In this document: one piece after another, positions 13,457 to 20,261 of the stretch
Numbering within the stretch: the stretch's first letter is position 1
Layout: every line of letters starts with the position of its first letter
From: Planctomycetota bacterium
Lineage (GTDB): Bacteria; Planctomycetota; Phycisphaerae; WQYP01
Direction of reading: 5' to 3'
Assembly (NCBI GenBank): GCA_021800165.1
Contig: JAJYZF010000002.1
Location: 25,488-89,487, forward strand
DNA: 64,000 nucleotides
Notes under the pieces: model-generated
Database searches by the model: none
What the model was told of the DNA's origin: nothing
What the model saw: only the letters and a program-made list of their open reading frames with translations
Position numbers and translations under genes: made by a program

Positions 13457-13486
13457 TTGGAAAGTGAGCTACAAGTACACTATAGT
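13457..13486 (+). promoter_or_regulatory. candidate sigma70 promoter of the WXG100/FtsK operon
   Basis: TTGGAA-N18-TATAGT, followed by RBS AAGGAG (13495-13500) and ATG 13508. Confidence 0.4.
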
Positions 13487-13507: not shown

Positions 13508-13780
13508 ATGGCAAAAGCAAATGTGGATCCGGTGGAACTCCGGCGCTTTGCGCAGGATTTAAATCGTTTCAATAATGACCTGCAAGGGTTGGTGGGCAGT
13601 TTGCAGGCGCGGTTGCGCGGTTTGGAAAGCGTATGGCAGGATCAGGAACAGCGCAAGTTTACCGAGGCTTTCGAGCAAACCTTGAAGACCATTGCTATTT
13701 TTCTGGAAGAATCGCACCAACATGCGCAGCTCCTGGCCAAAAAAGCCAATGTGATAGAGGAATATCTTAAACAGCGTTAA
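13508..13780 (+). CDS. WXG100/ESAT-6-like protein
   Basis: 90 aa, helical; N-terminal VDPVELRRFAQDL typical of WXG100; central W-Q-D followed by F..F; strong RBS. Confidence 0.88.
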   Translation: MAKANVDPVELRRFAQDLNRFNNDLQGLVGSLQARLRGLESVWQDQEQRKFTEAFEQTLKTIAIFLEESHQHAQLLAKKANVIEEYLKQR

Positions 13781-13808
13781 AGACACCGGATTGGCGCTGG
13801 GAGTGACT

Positions 13809-14831
13809 ATGGCTGAAGGCGCAAAAGTTCATGACATTGATGCGATCAAACGGTTTCGCGCGTACCTGGCCAAAGTCGGCGAGGTTGCGGGGTTGGCGCT
13901 GGGTGATGCGGAATCGGATATCAACCGCACCATGACCTGGCTGGAAACGGAACAAAGCACGTACTGGAGCGGGCAAATCCGCAAGCGTCAGGAAGTGCTC
14001 AAGCGGGCTCAGCAGGCCTTGCGCGACAAGCAGTTGTACAAAGATGCCAGCGGATCCCAGCCGTCGGTGGTGGAAGAACAAAAAGCGGTGCTCAAGGCTA
14101 AAAACAGCCTGCTGGAAGCGGAACAGAAATTGGCCAATACCAAAGCCTGGATTCGGCGATTGCCCAAGGAAATATCCCTGTATCGGGGTGGTGTACAGCC
14201 GCTGGGCAACACGGTGGCGGCGGGTATGCCCGCGGCTCTGGCCCATCTGACCAATGCGCTGGAGAGTCTGGATCGCTACGTTGCTTCGCCGGTGGAGGCG
14301 CAGTCGGCGGCACCGGCGGTGATCGGTTTGGAAAGCGCCGGTACCGGCGGTGGGCCGGACATGGCGCGGTCCCCCACCCCAGCGGATGAGGGCAAAACAG
14401 AAAATGAAGCGGCTGTGCTGCGGAGGGCTATTCCAACCGGCGATATTCTCTCGCAGGCCGTACCGGTCGAGCCGGGCCATAACGTGGTGTTGTCCCTGCC
14501 GGTGTTCAGCGGTGTGGAACGAGCACGTATGGTCACGGTGGGCTTATCACTGGAACTCCAACCTGATGAGCCGGTGACGATAGCTGAAAATGACACGCCC
14601 GGGGGGCAATGGTTGTTGACCCGTCTAAGTCAGGGCGGAGTTTATATAGGGCCGGTGGATGGCCCCGCGCCGATAAGATACCGGATGGTTCCCCTGGGAC
14701 GGTTGTTGGCCATGCGTTCTGATCTGGCGGAAGCGATGGCGCTGGGCGCGGGTTTTATGCTGCTGGTTGGGCCGCAGGGGTTGCTGCGAATTTTCAATCA
14801 GCGCGATGTCCGGCTGTGGTCGCGTGCTTAG
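13809..14831 (+). CDS. WXG100-like helical protein with linker and C-terminal extension
   Basis: N-terminal AKVHDIDAIKRFRAYL, YWSG motif, coiled coil to about aa 160, A/P/G-rich linker, then an alpha/beta C-terminal region. Confidence 0.75.
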   Translation: MAEGAKVHDIDAIKRFRAYLAKVGEVAGLALGDAESDINRTMTWLETEQSTYWSGQIRKRQEVLKRAQQALRDKQLYKDASGSQPSVVEEQKAVLKAKNSLLEAEQKLANTKAWIRRLPKEISLYRGGVQPLGNTVAAGMPAALAHLTNALESLDRYVASPVEAQSAAPAVIGLESAGTGGGPDMARSPTPADEGKTENEAAVLRRAIPTGDILSQAVPVEPGHNVVLSLPVFSGVERARMVTVGLSLELQPDEPVTIAENDTPGGQWLLTRLSQGGVYIGPVDGPAPIRYRMVPLGRLLAMRSDLAEAMALGAGFMLLVGPQGLLRIFNQRDVRLWSRA

Positions 14832-14888
14832 AAGTGGATCGATCCTGGCGGGTGCGGCCATGGCGGTGAATGATCAAAGGTGGTGCCC

Positions 14889-15101
14889 ATGAGTATGCAT
14901 GAGAGCCGTTCGAATATAAGTAAGCTGGTGCGGGAGGTGGAGAACCGTTGGAGTGAGCTGGAGATGGTGTGGAACGATGCCAACAGCCATGCCTTTGAGG
15001 AGCGTTTTATCCGGCCGCTGGTAGAGGATTCGCGTGCAGCCGTTGGCGCGATGGATTATATGAACCGGATTTTGGCTGATATCAAGCGTGATTGCGGATA
15101 A
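14889..15101 (+). CDS. small WXG100-like protein
   Basis: 70 aa, amphipathic helices, central W-N-D then AFEERF, resembling the W-Q-D...KFTEAF of the first gene; RBS AAAGGTGG. Confidence 0.75.
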   Translation: MSMHESRSNISKLVREVENRWSELEMVWNDANSHAFEERFIRPLVEDSRAAVGAMDYMNRILADIKRDCG

Positions 15102-15108
15102 GAGGACG

Positions 15109-18100
15109 ATGACTGAAGAAACCGATGCTAGCCCCGTGGCGGCTGGAGAAGCAGATGCGGCTGAAGGTGTTAACCCTGGAAGTATGGCACCTGTCGCGGA
15201 ATCCGCGGTGGATTTACCGCGCAAAGTCTTGCGCGATCTGATGGAGTTGGCTGCGGAATGTGCCGCCCGCGAGGCCGCGCTGGAACGCGAGTACAATGCG
15301 GCCACCGCGGAAGTAGACGCGCGCGAAAAGCGCACGCTTGCCAATCTGGAAGGGAGTCGGCGGCATGCCCAAGAACAGCTCTTAAAAAAGTTTCAGGAGC
15401 AGCAGGACCAAGCTCAGGCCAAGCGGATGCAGCAAACCGAAGAGGTCAGGGCGGCGGATGCCGCGGCACAAAAACAAGCTCGACAGACCTGTGACGCGAT
15501 CCAGGCGCAGCTCAAGAAAAACTACGAGCAGGTAGTCTGGGAAGCGGATATTCAACTGGAAGCCGAGCAAAACCGGTTGCGTGCGGAGCTGGCACAGATG
15601 CGCCAAACCAATGCCGCCACTCTGAAGGCCAAACACGATCAGCTCTTTGCTCTACTGGCTCGATATGGGCACGTTCCGGATGCGGAAGCCGCGTTGGCGG
15701 GCGATCCATCCGATCGGCCGACCATTCCGACGGATACGGCGGAGATTCAGGCGCAATTCGGCCGTCATGTGGCGGACATTGATCAGGCTCTGAAGATGTT
15801 GGAACAAACTGATTCGGCTAAGTTCTTTGTGGGGGTGTGGCCATACCTGCTATTTGCGGTGGTGGTGCTGTTGGCCGTGGGGATACCGCAATTGTTGCCG
15901 GGAGTGATCTGGCCGGATTTAAATCTGATGGGTGTGACCGGTACGGGGGCCGTGGTGTTGATGGCGTTGCTGCTGTTGTTGCTGCGCTGGCGGGCCCGTC
16001 GGGCGGTTCGGCGGGCATACCGTCCGGGGCATTATGCTTTGTTTTACGCCGACCTGGAAGCCCGAGCGGTGTTGGAGGCGGCCCAAAAGACGCATGATGC
16101 CGACTTGGCCAAGGCCCGGCATCGCCACAAGACGGAAGTGCACAGCGAAAAGGCCAAGGCTGAAGTTATTCTGGAAAAGGCCAAGGCCGCCCGCGATGCC
16201 GCCTTGGCAGCCAGCGCAGCTTCCTGCCAGACCAACTTGTTGCGGGTGGAGGAAGATTATGGCATAGCGGAACGCGAAATACGACGATGGCGCGATGAAC
16301 GTGAGACCCAGACGCAACAAAAGTATCAACAGGAGCTGGAAAACATTCGACAGGGCATAGCGGCGGACCGGTTACGTATCAAAACCCACCGCGAGTCCCA
16401 ACGGGCCGAGTTGGAGCAAAAGTGGACGCAGGGTCTATCCAGATTGCAAACCCCAGTGGAAACGGAAGCGGGCGGGCCGGCTGTGGCCACCGGTCAATGG
16501 GACCATTGGGTGCCACCACGCACCTTCGCGCAGACCGTGCGGTTTGGTGAATTGGCCGTGGATGTGCAGGCGATTGTGCGCCAGGCCGCCAAAGACGGGC
16601 CATTTACGCTGGAGATTCCCAGCCGCTTTGCGATGCCGGCGCTGCTGGCGTTTCCGCGGCACGCTTCATTGTTGATGCACGCGGACCGTGCCGGCCGCCC
16701 GGCGGCGCTGGCGGCATTGCAGGCCGTCATGACGCGGCTGCTTACCACCTTGCCGCCGGGGCGGGCCAGGTTCACACTGGTTGATCCGGTGGGTCTGGGG
16801 CAGAATTTCGCGGGCTTCATGCACCTGACGGATTATGACGAAGCGTTGGTGGGGGGCCGTATCTGGACGCAGGCAGAACAAATTGATCAACGACTGGCGG
16901 ATTTGACGGACCACATGGAAACCGTAATCCAGAAATACCTCCGCAATGAGTTTGAAACCATTGATGATTACAACATTCAGGCGGGTGAACTGGCCGAACC
17001 TTACCGTTTTCTGGTGATTGCGGATCTGCCGGTCGGTTTTTCCGACGAATCGCTGCGGCGGCTCAGCAGCATTGCCACCACCGGCGCGCGGTGCGGAGTT
17101 TACACCCTGGTTTTCCGCGATACGCGGGTGGCCGTGCCGGCGGGCACCCATTTGGAAGATTTGGAGTCGCACAGCATCAACCTGGTTTATCAGGATGATC
17201 GGTTCGTCTGGCGGGATGAGGTGTTCAGTCGGTTTCCGCTGACGCTGGATGCCGCACCCGAGGAAAACGATTTGACCACCATTTTGCATCTGGTGGGCAA
17301 GCAGGCGCGGGAATCCAAGCGGGTGGAGGTTTCGTTTGCGGCCATTGCTCCGGATCCGGATTCGTTTTGGACACGCCACAGCGATGCTGACCTGCATGCG
17401 GCAGTGGGGCGGTGCGGAGCCACGCGGCTGCAAACGTTCCGTCTGGGCAAGGGTGTGGCGCAGCACGCTCTGGTGACCGGTAAAACCGGTTCCGGCAAGT
17501 CCACGCTCATGCACGTGTTGGTGACGAATCTGGCGATGTGGTATTCGCCGCAGGAACTGGAACTCTATCTCATCGATTTTAAAAAGGGCGTGGAGTTCAA
17601 AACCTATGCCACCCATCGCCTGCCCCATGCCCGGGCCATAGCGGTGGAAAGTGATCGAGAATTTGGCCTAAGCGTCTTGCAGCGTATTGATGCGGAACTG
17701 GGCCGGAGGGGGGATCTATTCCGGGCGGTTGGCGCGCAGGATCTGGCGGGGTATCGGCAGGCGTCCAAACAACCGTTGGCACGGACGCTGCTGGTGATTG
17801 ATGAATTTCAGGAATTTTTCAGTGAAGATGACAAACTGGGGCAGGATGCGGCCCTGCTGTTGGATCGGCTGGTGCGGCAGGGGCGGGCGTTTGGGATTCA
17901 TGTCTTGTTGGGTTCGCAGACGATTGCCGGATCTTCCGGCTTGTCGCGCAGCACCATCGGCCAGGTTGCGGTACGCATTGCGCTGCAGACCACCGAGGCG
18001 GATTCGCAAGTGGTGCTGGCGGACGGCAATTCGGCGGCCCGGCTGCTCTCCCGTCCGGGCGAGGCTATTTACAACGATGCCGGCGGATTGGTGGAAGGCA

Positions 18101-19077
18101 ACAGCCCGTTTCAGGTGGCATGGCTGGCTGATGAACAGCGGGATCGATATCTGGAAGCGGTACGGGAAAAGGCCGACCTTCTGGATGTGCGCACGGAACC
18201 CACCATTATTTTTGAAGGTAACACGGCGGCGGATATCCGCAAGAACCGGCAGTTGTTGACGCTGCTGGAAACCCCGCGTGTGGCGGTTAATCCCAGGGTG
18301 TGGTTGGGCGAGCCGGTGGCTATTAAGGAACCCACCAGCATCGTATTTCGGCGGCAAAGCGGCGGCAATGTGATGCTGATCGGCCAATCCGAAGAGCAGG
18401 CTTTGGCGATCATGTCGGCGGCGATGTTGGCCCTGGCGGCGCAGCAGCCTCCGGATACCAGTCTGTACATTTTCGACGGTAGCGCAACGGATTCACCATC
18501 CTATGGGGTATTGCCGGCTACCGCCGCAGTCACAAAACTGGTCTATAAGAATGTCGAATATCGCGCCGTGCCGGAAGTCATCAAGCAACTGGCGAAGGAA
18601 TTACAGCAGCGGCAGGGTGGAACGGTGACCGCGCCGCCGGCAATTTTTATCTTTGTACTGGGTCTGCAGCGCTACCGGCCGCTGCGAAAATCGGAAGATG
18701 CTTTCGGGTTTTCCAGTGGCGGCGGTGATGACAAAGAGGCTGATCCGAGCAAACAGTTCGCCGATCTGCTGCGCGAAGGCCCGGCGTGGGGTATCCATCT
18801 GATCATCTGGACCGATACCGTGGTATCCGTCGACCGCGCTTTAGACCGCAATTCCATGCGTGAATTTGATACGCGGGTACTCTTTCAGATGAGTGCATCG
18901 GACAGCAGCAACCTCATTGATTCCCCGGCGGCCAACCGCCTTGGCCCGTGCCGGGCTTTGGCCTATAGCGAAGAACAGGGCACGCTGGAAAAGTTCCGCA
19001 CTTACGCGGTGCCGGACGTAGAGTTTCTGCAGGAAGCCCAACGGAAATTAACCGCCAAACCGGTTAGTCCCGGCTAA
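15109..19077 (+). CDS. EccC/EssC-like FtsK/SpoIIIE ATPase with two TM helices and coiled coils
   Basis: Two TM segments flanked by coiled coils; one intact ATPase domain (HALVTGKTGSGKST, LIDFKKG, LLVIDEFQ, RQGRAFGIH); degenerate RecA-like domains before and after it. Confidence 0.93.
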   Translation: MTEETDASPVAAGEADAAEGVNPGSMAPVAESAVDLPRKVLRDLMELAAECAAREAALEREYNAATAEVDAREKRTLANLEGSRRHAQEQLLKKFQEQQDQAQAKRMQQTEEVRAADAAAQKQARQTCDAIQAQLKKNYEQVVWEADIQLEAEQNRLRAELAQMRQTNAATLKAKHDQLFALLARYGHVPDAEAALAGDPSDRPTIPTDTAEIQAQFGRHVADIDQALKMLEQTDSAKFFVGVWPYLLFAVVVLLAVGIPQLLPGVIWPDLNLMGVTGTGAVVLMALLLLLLRWRARRAVRRAYRPGHYALFYADLEARAVLEAAQKTHDADLAKARHRHKTEVHSEKAKAEVILEKAKAARDAALAASAASCQTNLLRVEEDYGIAEREIRRWRDERETQTQQKYQQELENIRQGIAADRLRIKTHRESQRAELEQKWTQGLSRLQTPVETEAGGPAVATGQWDHWVPPRTFAQTVRFGELAVDVQAIVRQAAKDGPFTLEIPSRFAMPALLAFPRHASLLMHADRAGRPAALAALQAVMTRLLTTLPPGRARFTLVDPVGLGQNFAGFMHLTDYDEALVGGRIWTQAEQIDQRLADLTDHMETVIQKYLRNEFETIDDYNIQAGELAEPYRFLVIADLPVGFSDESLRRLSSIATTGARCGVYTLVFRDTRVAVPAGTHLEDLESHSINLVYQDDRFVWRDEVFSRFPLTLDAAPEENDLTTILHLVGKQARESKRVEVSFAAIAPDPDSFWTRHSDADLHAAVGRCGATRLQTFRLGKGVAQHALVTGKTGSGKSTLMHVLVTNLAMWYSPQELELYLIDFKKGVEFKTYATHRLPHARAIAVESDREFGLSVLQRIDAELGRRGDLFRAVGAQDLAGYRQASKQPLARTLLVIDEFQEFFSEDDKLGQDAALLLDRLVRQGRAFGIHVLLGSQTIAGSSGLSRSTIGQVAVRIALQTTEADSQVVLADGNSAARLLSRPGEAIYNDAGGLVEGNSPFQVAWLADEQRDRYLEAVREKADLLDVRTEPTIIFEGNTAADIRKNRQLLTLLETPRVAVNPRVWLGEPVAIKEPTSIVFRRQSGGNVMLIGQSEEQALAIMSAAMLALAAQQPPDTSLYIFDGSATDSPSYGVLPATAAVTKLVYKNVEYRAVPEVIKQLAKELQQRQGGTVTAPPAIFIFVLGLQRYRPLRKSEDAFGFSSGGGDDKEADPSKQFADLLREGPAWGIHLIIWTDTVVSVDRALDRNSMREFDTRVLFQMSASDSSNLIDSPAANRLGPCRALAYSEEQGTLEKFRTYAVPDVEFLQEAQRKLTAKPVSPG

Positions 19078-19265
19078 ATTGTACGTAATATGGATTTCCC
19101 TGCGGATGGGGGAGTAGGCAGTTTCCGGATCAACGGCGCATCTGTGGTGCGGCCAGGAAAATTGTAATATTGCCATTCTTTCCCGCCAGACGCTGGCTGC
19201 TGTTCAACAGGGCTGGCGGTGGTACCATCATGAGGGAAACTCGGAATCCGGCTCGGGGGTTTTAT

Positions 19266-20261
19266 ATGGCTGTCCGCTGCGACGTGTGCGGTGATCTCAT
19301 CGACGATGCCGCTTCAGCGCGACTGATCGGCGGCCGGGCAATCTGCGGGCCATGCCATGCCAAACTCCAGCACCCGTTAGCAGATGCCCCAGGGCCGACG
19401 GGTGAAACACCGAGTCTGCGTAAGCCATGGCGAGAAAAAATTGCCGATATCGCGTGGGTTGCGTTGGTGGCGGCGGCGATTGTGCTGCTGGCCGGGACTT
19501 TGCTGTGGATGCTACCGCCTGTGCGCATTGTGGTGGGGGTGGGTGCTATGCTGCTTTTTCATAGCTTTGGCGTTGTTATAGTGGCCATGGTCGTGCTGCT
19601 TGTTGTGCTTATTATTCGACGGATGCGTGCCCGGCCGGCGGTGGACGGCATAGCGCGGGTGCGTGAGGCGGGGCCAGCCCCGCAGCCAACAAATCCACAG
19701 CGGGTAAAGGCGTCTGTTCGAACAATGTTGGGAATAGTCGCCACTGCGTTGACGCTGGCCGGTGTCGTGGCACTGATTGGGTGGATACTGGCTTTGCCAA
19801 TCCTCTTGCTCTTGACGTTGCTGGCGGATTCCACGCCTGACCGGACCCCCATTTTTCTCATACCGTTAGAGGCAATTGCGGCGCTGCTGGTTGCACGCCT
19901 GCTGGCGTACGTCGGCCAGTTAGGGGTACCCAAGAGACAATTCGCGTGGAGCTTGCCCGAGCTGGCACTGCGCTCGGTAGGCCGCATACTTATGTTGGTC
20001 GTGAATTCGGCGATTTCGGTGTTTTTCATTTTGTGCCTCTTGACGGTGGCCGGGCCGAGCAACTGGTGGGCTTTTATTTTCGGGTTGGGCGTGGCGGCGG
20101 GGATTGGGGTCTGGTTTCTGCGGCGAAGGCCAGGCGCGAAGCCGGGCTTTAACCTGAGAAGTATCGGGTCCTACTTTTTACGGACTTTTCTGTTCTGGTG
20201 TGCGGTGTGGTTGGCGATTGGCCTAGCCAATCATGTGTGGCCCGACTGGCAACGATGGTGA
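19266..20261 (+). CDS. multi-pass membrane protein with N-terminal CxxC...CxxC zinc-ribbon
   Basis: CDVC and CGPC near the N-terminus, followed by about 7 hydrophobic helices. Confidence 0.7.
   Translation: MAVRCDVCGDLIDDAASARLIGGRAICGPCHAKLQHPLADAPGPTGETPSLRKPWREKIADIAWVALVAAAIVLLAGTLLWMLPPVRIVVGVGAMLLFHSFGVVIVAMVVLLVVLIIRRMRARPAVDGIARVREAGPAPQPTNPQRVKASVRTMLGIVATALTLAGVVALIGWILALPILLLLTLLADSTPDRTPIFLIPLEAIAALLVARLLAYVGQLGVPKRQFAWSLPELALRSVGRILMLVVNSAISVFFILCLLTVAGPSNWWAFIFGLGVAAGIGVWFLRRRPGAKPGFNLRSIGSYFLRTFLFWCAVWLAIGLANHVWPDWQRW

Follow-up and report, generated by a model that had tools for sequence, protein, structure and literature searches.

Positions 13508-19077 of a 64,000-nt stretch of DNA from a Planctomycetota bacterium (assembly GCA_021800165.1, contig JAJYZF010000002.1; the whole stretch is hereafter called the window) hold a cassette of four genes, which encode a small WXG100 protein (P1), a long hairpin protein (P2), a second small protein (P3) and a large FtsK/SpoIIIE-type ATPase. 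The cassette very probably belongs to a known module that combines a solo WXG protein with a three-domain YueA-like ATPase. Its genes lie as follows:

13508-13780, + strand: P1, open reading frame (ORF) of 90 amino acids
13809-14831, + strand: P2, 340 amino acids from the ATG; the ORF opens at a TTG at 13791 and then has 346 amino acids
14880/14889-15101, + strand: P3, ORF of 73/70 amino acids
15088-19077, + strand: ATPase, ORF of 1329 amino acids

P1 and P2 are 10-28 nt apart, P2 and P3 48-57 nt apart, and P3 and the ATPase gene overlap by 14 nt; the ATG at 13809 is the start in P2 homologues. An earlier note on this DNA, made from the sequence alone, had described four co-directional, closely spaced genes. 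All four ORFs are indeed on the + strand, and the ATPase of 1322 amino acids given there fits a later ATG of the 1329-amino-acid ORF.

The arrangement is conserved well beyond the window. A scan with a P2 profile, one genome per species, returned 63 loci from Phycisphaerae, other Planctomycetota, Verrucomicrobiota and two metagenome-assembled genomes (MAGs) labelled Gammaproteobacteria and Bacillota. All four genes are present in 49 of these loci, found in Planctomycetota and Verrucomicrobiota, and their order and strand are identical in 49 of 49. P1 is found in 59 of the 60 loci with room upstream, P3 in 52 of the 56 with room downstream, and an adjacent ATPase in 44 of the 51 with at least 3 kb downstream. 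The ATPase is not adjacent in the remaining 7 loci, and a full-length orthologue is encoded elsewhere in four of the five such genomes checked, in one verrucomicrobial genome with a P3-like gene directly upstream of it. In some Verrucomicrobiota the cassette is split (L066 and L078 of genome G405; L062 and L063), P1 and a short form of P2 standing among unrelated genes, in L062 next to a ribonucleotide reductase on the opposite strand, with a P3-like gene and the ATPase side by side at another site of the genome. ORF clustering over the 63 loci and the window yielded no fifth widely shared gene, the next real cluster covering 10 loci, and flanking genes vary even among the closest relatives. 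The nearest relatives at the locus are MAGs labelled Phycisphaerae or Planctomycetota. The Gammaproteobacteria-labelled MAG (L059) and the Bacillota-labelled one (L024) carry cassette genes of the type found in Planctomycetes-Verrucomicrobia-Chlamydiae (PVC) bacteria, those of L059 being close to verrucomicrobial ones, which either an error of binning or horizontal gene transfer could explain. No integrase or repeat boundary that would mark the cassette as mobile was identified.

Among sampled Planctomycetota the P2 profile matches 50 of 401 genomes (28 of the 244 high-quality ones); 44 of the 50 have a near-full P2 N-terminal domain, 3 a partial one and 3 the C-terminal domain only. This patchy spread among families indicates that the module is accessory rather than core. 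It also bears on the idea that the cassette serves PVC bacteria as a housekeeping device for remodelling membranes or for cell division, which would suit the very high conservation of P1 and the single-copy state of the cassette. With a near-full P2 N-domain in only 44 of 401 genomes and in none of many complete genomes of the same class, and with variable genomic neighbourhoods, we consider this the least probable of all the explanations discussed here.

The WXG100 protein and the ATPase

P1 matches the Pfam WXG100 family (PF06013) with 38 bits against a cut-off of 27.3 (E 2.1e-9, positions 3-83 of 86) and the ATPase matches PF01580 with 103 bits, so that the two family assignments of the earlier note hold in profile searches. 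The stricter NCBIfam model TIGR03930 is not reached by P1 (30.4 versus 44.85 bits). A P1 profile built from 28 orthologues finds as its best match in the PDB the Helicobacter pylori protein HP0062 (3fx7, residues 1-89, E 6e-13), with EsxB and EsxA next. The turn motif of P1 is W-[QR]-D-Q-E (W43-Q-D45 in the window), with W43 and D45 invariant in the 28 aligned sequences and the glycine of W-x-G at the hairpin turn in none of them. The bend of HP0062 likewise carries 'WRD', and its hairpin has been reported as a homodimer (review of H. pylori structures). P1 also has a conserved C-terminus (IEEYLKQR) and is the most conserved of the four proteins, with an ORF of exactly 90 amino acids in 59 of 61 loci and 43-100% identity to the window protein; median identities to the window are 69% for P1, 49% for the ATPase, 40% for P2 and 39% for P3. 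Its homologues, at least 8000 candidates in a family search, are publicly annotated as 'WXG100 family type VII secretion target', with PF06013 on all 120 matches listed. P1 is the sole WXG100 match in its own genome (4.37 Mb, 228 contigs, 92.8% complete; the cassette lies on contig C35).

By eye the P1 N-terminus, ANVDPVELRRFAQDL (window 13508-13560), resembles that of P2, AKVHDIDAIKRFRAYL (13809-13870), and counterparts in Rhodococcus and Helicobacter begin with a similar motif. Profile comparison does not support homology of P1 and P2 (hhalign probability 0.5%), and the likeness could be a shared recognition element or chance.

The ATPase combines a putative membrane anchor with three tandem domains, placed as follows:

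15814-15996, + strand: two hydrophobic segments of the ATPase from a hydropathy scan, residues 243-276 and 278-303, followed by Arg-rich RWRARRAVRR
16525-17322, + strand: ATPase domain I, residues ~480-745, degenerate: a conserved alpha/beta domain that lacks Walker A
17389-18192, + strand: ATPase domain II, residues ~768-1035, the sole active-looking P-loop domain
17479-17502, + strand: Walker A GKTGSGKS of domain II, residues 798-805
18205-19074, + strand: ATPase domain III, residues ~1040-1329, degenerate P-loop-like, with conserved LFQMSAxDSSNLIDSP

Orthologues are 1291-1407 amino acids long. The N-terminal 480 residues of the window ATPase are poorly conserved and look by eye like a charged, Ala/Glu/Gln-rich coiled coil. 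In 31 of 31 orthologues transmembrane (TM)-like segments are found within residues 208-348, and we read the hydrophobic pair of the window protein as a TM hairpin with a short loop, its topology following from the positive-inside rule. A single Walker A, in the middle domain, is likewise present in all 31; the Walker B of this domain is LLVIDEFQEF, and DEFQEF occurs only there. On these sequence grounds the protein is best described as one active P-loop domain between two degenerate ones, that is, tandem FtsK-like domains with a presumed membrane anchor. The best NCBIfam matches are EccCa, EccCb and EssC, and an AlphaFold model of residues 480-1329 consists of three alpha/beta domains (predicted local distance difference test, pLDDT, 84). 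Foldseek aligns this model collinearly with the three ATPase domains of Thermomonospora curvata EccC (4nh0, E 6.9e-34, ~906 columns), followed by EccC D2-D3, EssC D2-D3 and then FtsK. In sequence the active domain most resembles D1 of T. curvata EccC (4nh0), and domain III is a candidate substrate-recognition domain by analogy with the last EccC domain (4n1a). The ATPase is split into two to four frames in several MAGs (L010, L012, L026, L054, L059, L065 and contig C10 of G401), which may be assembly errors or pseudogenes.

A tblastn search with the ATPase found three-domain relatives on plasmids of Rhodococcus, Caballeronia, Helicobacter and Deinococcus. The plasmid setting, together with the label 'mobile' given to the module (Zhang et al., 2012; Bell et al., 2024; cited here and below for particular passages) and the matches of the active domain to FtsK and to the TcpA coupling protein in the PDB, could point to a motor of the FtsK/TraB/TcpA kind, for DNA translocation or of the conjugation type, which would serve a mobile element with the helical proteins as DNA-handling accessories. 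We hold this to be very improbable, since the three-domain layout is collinear with EccC and not with single-domain FtsK, and it is by a WXG100 partner that T7SS-type motors are recognised (T7SS, type VII secretion system). Moreover, ORF clustering found no conserved relaxase, integrase or replication gene beside the cassette, and the second of the 2 FtsK-family matches in the own genome is a separate, housekeeping-type FtsK on another contig.

P2, P3 and their predicted pairing

Residue numbers of P2 follow the 346-amino-acid frame. An AlphaFold2 model built on 45 sequences (mean pLDDT 83) divides the protein into three parts:

13824-14285, + strand: P2 N-domain, residues 12-165, modelled as helix 12-82, turn 83-93 and helix 94-165
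P2 residues 169-201, + strand: linker, disordered in the model
14406-14822, + strand: alpha/beta domain at the P2 C-terminus, residues 206-344, missing in short P2; Imm33-like in homologues

The modelled hairpin spans ~150 residues, with two helices of ~70 residues each, and its turn is formed by a conserved KDxSG in which G88 is invariant. P2's W59-S-G sits mid-helix, within helix 12-82, and G61 is not conserved; with the turn at 83-93, the motif is no WXG turn. No Pfam family matches the window P2, and LXG and WXG100 are both absent from the 25 families listed, of 90 matched, for 32 P2 N-domains. The P2 profile gave nothing meaningful against PDB sequences, and Foldseek with the P2 model gave nothing at E<=1e-3, the TelA-LXG/LapA3/LapA4 complex (8gmh) appearing only at rank 48. 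A wide VIA-align comparison returned long coiled-coil hairpins of a generic kind, such as SMC arms, YscO, CT398 and HlyD, with Z no higher than 10.9, under the ~13 advised for helical proteins. As modelled, P2 is no WXG100 protein but a long coiled-coil hairpin from a family without a name. This family is large: a search of 1.84 billion representatives gave 2950 clusters (50% identity) at E<=1e-3. The 150 best of these matches all have the domain at the N-terminus of a protein of 151-411 amino acids, and none is a long toxin fusion.

The 78 P2 homologues come chiefly from Phycisphaerae and Tepidisphaeraceae, and one of them is found in Humisphaera borealis, which is in culture. By ORF length, P2 is long in ~26 loci, short in ~32 (172-254 amino acids, without the C-terminal domain) and cut in 5, and Verrucomicrobiota-type loci have the short form in 9 of 9. 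Since the VIA-align comparison barely covered the C-terminal domain, what is said of its fold goes no further than the Pfam matches of homologues: among aligned sequences, P0012 (31.4 bits), L034 (43.9), L017 (43.8) and L020 (40.5) exceed the 27-bit cut-off of the Imm33-like family PF24719, others score below it (25.9 and 24.3), and the window P2 has no match to it at E<=1. The Imm33-like domain also matches ORFs of 214-744 amino acids at unrelated sites in six Planctomycetota genomes (G092, G104, G275, G328, G066 and G154), indicating that the domain circulates independently of the cassette.

P3 has invariant W21, W28 and D30 and a nearly invariant C-terminal D-C-E (DCE/DCG). The window P3 has no Pfam family; 7 of 31 orthologues match Pfam WXG100 at E<=1, weakly (best E 0.0014), and the P3 profile weakly matches S. 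aureus EsxA (E 0.18) and 4lws_A (E 0.031), which we take to be an Esx protein. A word-based search for P3 homologues had returned one protein only, and orthologues were then gathered by synteny. The W-x-D motifs of P3 and P1 align, although hhalign finds no significant similarity between the two (3.4% probability). An ESM Atlas model of P3 superposes on WXG100 clusters with template modelling scores of 0.80-0.88, which we treat as a lead only. P3 would thus appear WXG100-like weakly by sequence, with a structural lead in addition.

For the complex, P2 residues 1-170, P1 and P3 were modelled as three chains, with P3 as the scored partner, in three runs and with three controls. P3 scored 0.78 (median of the three runs) against 0.02 for the best control, and an unrelated protein in place of P2 brought the score to 0.02. 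Of 80 solved complexes 58 attain a score of 0.78, as do 2 of 110 mismatched pairs, a calibration that holds only roughly here because self-made alignments and three chains were submitted. The runs share at least 94% of contacts, with partner pLDDT of at least 91. In the model P3 contacts P2 at residues 10-59 and 113-156, the open end of the hairpin, and P1 at residues 86-90 only. This suggests that P3 pairs with P2 as a four-helix bundle and not with P1 as an Esx-type heterodimer.

The picture of three WXG100-like genes drawn in the earlier note is therefore modified. Its motifs W-Q-D, W-S-G and W-N-D are all present, but the second lies within a helix and not at a turn. P1 belongs to the family by Pfam, P3 resembles it weakly, and P2, with no Pfam match and a long hairpin, is not a member. 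As a WXG100-type hairpin in models P3 stands as a lead, whereas the ~70-residue helices of P2 do not fit, and multimer modelling pairs P3 with P2 but gives no P1-P3 pair.

Genome context, plasmid relatives and possible function

The earlier note had seen a WXG100 gene and an EccC/EssC-like ATPase without the other membrane parts of T7SSa or T7SSb, and had left open their presence elsewhere in the genome. None of the parts searched for was found in the window or the genome: EccB, EccD, YukD, YukC/EssB, EssA and EsaA had no match (models PF05108, PF08817, PF10140, PF10661, TIGR03920 and TIGR03929), with positive controls detected, a negative that does not extend to EccE, whose control stayed silent, or to MycP, which was not searched for. 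Because the genome is 92.8% complete, absence of the other T7SS parts is likely rather than proven. LXG (PF04740) likewise had no match in the genome, with its positive control detected. Inspection by eye showed neither a hydrophobic signal sequence at the N-terminus of P1, P2 or P3 nor a strict YxxxD/E or HxxxD/ExxhxxxH export motif.

The surroundings of the cassette include the following features:

13457-13486, + strand: promoter-like hexamers TTGGAA/TGGAAA and TATAGT with a 17-18 nt spacer, ~20 nt upstream of P1
11566-13380, - strand: divergent gene for a 604-amino-acid protein with one weak tetratricopeptide repeat (TPR) match and a C-terminal half without family
19170-20261, + strand: ORF of 363 amino acids directly 3' of the ATPase gene, without Pfam family

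A candidate promoter of the cassette's own had been proposed, and a well-placed sigma-70-like match of 9/12 does exist at 13457-13486. Such sites are, however, no commoner in the region than expected by chance (3 versus 2.7 in shuffled sequence), so that the match is well placed but no evidence for a promoter. GC skew is positive in 27 of 32 2-kb bins of window 1-64000, the cumulative skew climbing to 3.35, which suggests that the + strand is the leading strand over the whole window and the cassette co-oriented with it. Both neighbouring genes were rejected as cassette members. The 604-amino-acid TPR gene is kept only in the three closest relatives (69-86% identity). The 363-amino-acid protein, by eye a CxxC...CxxC zinc-ribbon-like N-terminus followed by many hydrophobic segments, is probably outside the cassette because its gene is absent downstream of the ATPase in the closest relatives, even in L005 and L006, whose ATPases are 86-88% identical. 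DNA sequencing runs with matching sequence are mine-drainage and sediment metagenomes, perhaps the very samples of origin, and no RNA run is among those listed.

Three plasmid-borne relatives help to place the module. On a plasmid of Helicobacter sp. NHP19-012 an 89-amino-acid P1 homologue (hhalign 97.9%) is the first gene of a set, followed by a 340-amino-acid protein with a C-terminal WHH/colicin-DNase domain, a SUKH immunity gene, a 77-amino-acid protein and an FtsK/SpoIIIE ATPase. Caballeronia plasmid NZ_CP049321.1 (L067) has genes for VWA, WXG100, a 436-amino-acid coiled-coil protein, proteins of 113 and 76 amino acids, the ATPase, CARF, VWA, PP2C and a Ser/Thr kinase. Rhodococcus plasmid NZ_CP126457.1 (L069) has the ATPase in first place, then a 314-amino-acid protein, a 73-amino-acid W-R-D protein and an 87-amino-acid W-K-D protein ending in DQYLGR, with TerD/DUF475 genes nearby. 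The Rhodococcus TerD and Caballeronia VWA-CARF-PP2C-kinase contexts fit the association of the module with Ter/TerY-P systems described in passages of Uchiyama (2016) and Bell et al. (2024; eLife RP94800). A hydropathy scan gave at most one TM-like segment for each of the ATPases of Caballeronia, Rhodococcus and Helicobacter.

The Helicobacter set, with a DNase in the P2 position and a SUKH gene behind it, raises the possibility that the cassette is a toxin-delivery system whose toxin was lost, leaving an immunity-like domain fused to a trafficking domain in long P2 or the bare domain in short P2, and now a relic or an exporter of unlinked cargo. Two length classes of P2 with a single type of C-terminal domain, the variable flanks and the plasmid-borne relatives would be in keeping with such a history. 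Strong conservation over two phyla with mostly intact ORFs argues that the cassette is no decaying relic; one P2-type N-domain, one WXG100 gene and no LXG match in the genome leave no other candidate cargo in view, and the P2-N profile of PVC bacteria detected no homology in the Helicobacter counterpart. We judge a lost toxin quite improbable.

A non-secretory conflict or defence module has more to be said for it. Here a membrane-tethered hexamer would unfold, activate or relocate P2-P3 in the cytoplasm, the Imm33-like domain would sense or neutralise a nuclease toxin or phage factor, and the hairpins would act as adaptors. The same module is described within Type III-A CoCoNuT/TerY-P operons with an ATPase lacking TM helices (passages of Bell et al., 2024), the Caballeronia locus groups it with VWA, CARF, PP2C and Ser/Thr kinase genes, relatives have nuclease domains at the P2 position, the Imm33 family is entered in a table of Zhang et al. 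(2012) as immunity against HNH-type toxins, and the spread over 50 of 401 Planctomycetota genomes (28 of 244 high-quality) is patchy and accessory. Against it, PADLOC 2.0 matched the ATPase only through generic FtsK/HerA P-loop models (SspH, mad8, HerA) and the small proteins through one chance-level 11.8-bit match, and the genes flanking the cassette in the window are no defence genes by Pfam. The TM hairpin in 31 of 31 PVC orthologues argues for a membrane-linked function, and the cassette persists with short forms of P2 that lack the C-terminal domain. Overall we regard such a role, of a kind that Bell et al. (2024) suspect for the TM-less forms, as unlikely but as the main rival of export. 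The two mechanisms put forward in the earlier note, export to the periplasm and a non-secretory or defence machine, are thus the two chief contenders.

T7SS-like export is favoured because the TM hairpin is conserved and P1, P2 and P3 lack an N-terminal signal by eye; export of protein by the cassette stands at about even chances. In mycobacterial ESX structures the TM helices of EccC line the central pore. The ATPase of the cassette would be a hexamer held in the cytoplasmic membrane by its TM hairpin, the three P-loop domains lying on the cytoplasmic side. P1, a W-x-D hairpin of the HP0062 type, would probably be a dimer, and P3 would dock on the open end of the P2 hairpin to give a four-helix bundle. 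The degenerate ATPase domains might recognise these signal-less helical bundles, and ATP hydrolysis in domain II would drive them over the inner membrane, in a diderm into the periplasm. The P2 C-terminal domain would then be the place where the 'cargo' varies: distant relatives on plasmids have a nuclease there, and PVC bacteria either an Imm33-like domain or none. We consider the whole of this reading, a stand-alone, membrane-anchored member of the module that exports P1 and the P2-P3 bundle over the inner membrane, to be evenly poised between right and wrong.

Several points weigh against it. The ATPase falls far under the equivalog cut-offs of its best family models (TIGR03924, 111.6 versus 509; TIGR03925, 93.5 versus 347; TIGR03928, 84.3 versus 778). 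TM-poor plasmid ATPases and the TM-less CoCoNuT homologues indicate that the ATPase family is not membrane-dependent, and for the latter a passage of Bell et al. (2024) suggests 'a different mechanism'. ORF clustering found no conserved outer-membrane or periplasmic partner, so that export would reach the periplasm at best. An Imm33-like domain, its fold known from immunity proteins, would be an odd export cargo, and the high conservation of P1 would fit a machine part as well as a substrate. P2-N and P3 profiles detected no homology to the Helicobacter and Caballeronia proteins in the same positions, which makes the cargo analogy with plasmid relatives positional only. Finally, the complex score of P2 and P3 is the confidence of a model and no measurement.

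In a stronger version of the export reading, the ATPase alone would be the whole translocon in the inner membrane of diderm PVC bacteria, exporting P1 and P2-P3, the latter as new LXG/Lap- or PE/PPE-like families. This is possible though doubtful; if true, T7SS-type protein export would be known for the first time from an envelope of the Gram-negative type, and the cassette would be a minimal system for how a lone EccC-type hexamer moves folded helical bundles. In a bolder variant, long P2 may bring its Imm33-like domain outside the cytoplasm.

Comparison with known systems

T7SS is usually treated as a system of Actinomycetota and Bacillota. The earlier note knew similar gene pairs from other phyla; these are in print, but already for Planctomycetota as well (passages of Zhang et al., 2012; Uchiyama, 2016; Bell et al., 2024). 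In particular, Table 1, footnote 6, of Zhang et al. (2012; Biol Direct 7:18) records a solo WXG protein with such an ATPase in planctomycetes and verrucomicrobia as 'mobile versions of T7SS', and Bell et al. (2024) cite Anantharaman (2012) for a minimal T7SS-like module. The kind of system is therefore already described for this phylum, and the cassette adds no new kind. As the earlier note had supposed, functional characterisation in Planctomycetota did not come to light: a search for T7SS or WXG100 with Planctomycetes, Planctomycetota, Verrucomicrobia or Chloroflexi found no functional study, most subscription journals lying outside its reach, and in a term search of the survey of T7SS variants by Garrett (2024) the terms diderm, Planctomycet and Chloroflex are absent.

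What is added here is the four-gene anatomy across PVC bacteria, with a putatively TM-anchored ATPase, two forms of P2, a predicted P2-P3 pairing, co-occurrence of the genes even where unlinked, and no other T7SS parts found. The module is widespread and minimal (one ATPase and three helical proteins). If it is an exporter, it would be the simplest available model of T7SS-type translocation and a pathway at work in diderms; if not, pairs of WXG100 and EssC-like proteins would have a non-secretory role, which bears on annotation.

In the passages of Bell et al. (2024) on Type III-A CoCoNuT/TerY-P operons, the EssC-like ATPase has three domains, of which only the central one is active, an N-terminal coiled coil and no TM helices, and is accompanied by a pair of WXG100 proteins, with the motif missing from one, and by a fusion of a coiled coil to a nuclease. 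Taken with Zhang et al. (2012), the features shared with the cassette are an adjacent WXG100 protein, a three-domain ATPase with an active central domain and a long non-catalytic N-terminus, another WXG100-like protein, which lacks WxG, and a coiled-coil protein whose C-terminus varies, the small and coiled-coil proteins corresponding to P1, P3 and P2 here. The cassette differs in that its ATPase has a presumed TM hairpin (in 31 of 31 orthologues) where the one described by Bell et al. (2024) has no TM helices, and in that P2 ends in an Imm33-like domain or nothing, in contrast to the D-ExK nuclease described there. In further contrast to Type III-A CoCoNuT as described in that paper, the flanking ORFs scanned here are without VWA, kinase, phosphatase or McrBC-type genes and encode TPR proteins or proteins of no family. 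The P2-P3 pairing predicted here is not in the text consulted of Bell et al. (2024) or Zhang et al. (2012), supplements aside.

The Helicobacter systems are the nearest parallel in layout. HP0062 forms a hairpin dimer and has an FtsK/SpoIIIE neighbour (review of H. pylori structures), and HP0062/HP0066 and the NHP19-012 plasmid resemble the cassette in combining a small hairpin, a longer protein, a small protein and an FtsK/SpoIIIE ATPase. The plasmid set differs in its ATPase of 823 amino acids with at most one TM-like segment and in the DNase in the P2 position, followed by SUKH. T7SSb (EssC/YukB, EsxA/YukE) shares with the cassette a membrane FtsK/SpoIIIE ATPase with tandem P-loop domains and a WXG100 protein. 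LXG-Lap complexes pair a long helical N-terminal domain with a small helical hairpin partner, and the predicted P2-P3 pair resembles them. Unlike T7SSb, the cassette has no EsaA, EssA, EssB/YukC or YukD match and no FHA in Pfam, its P2 is not LXG by Pfam and its host is diderm. For T7SSa/ESX, EccC is the best structural match of the ATPase, with EccC D1 nearest to the active domain, and the combination of the small hairpin P3 with the longer helical P2 is reminiscent of PE-PPE pairs. Unlike T7SSa, the cassette has no EccB or EccD match, three and not four P-loop-like domains, and one active site. Among relatives of its own kind, the PVC form of the module is thus distinct in its apparent TM hairpin, its Imm33-like or absent P2 C-terminus and its stand-alone context.

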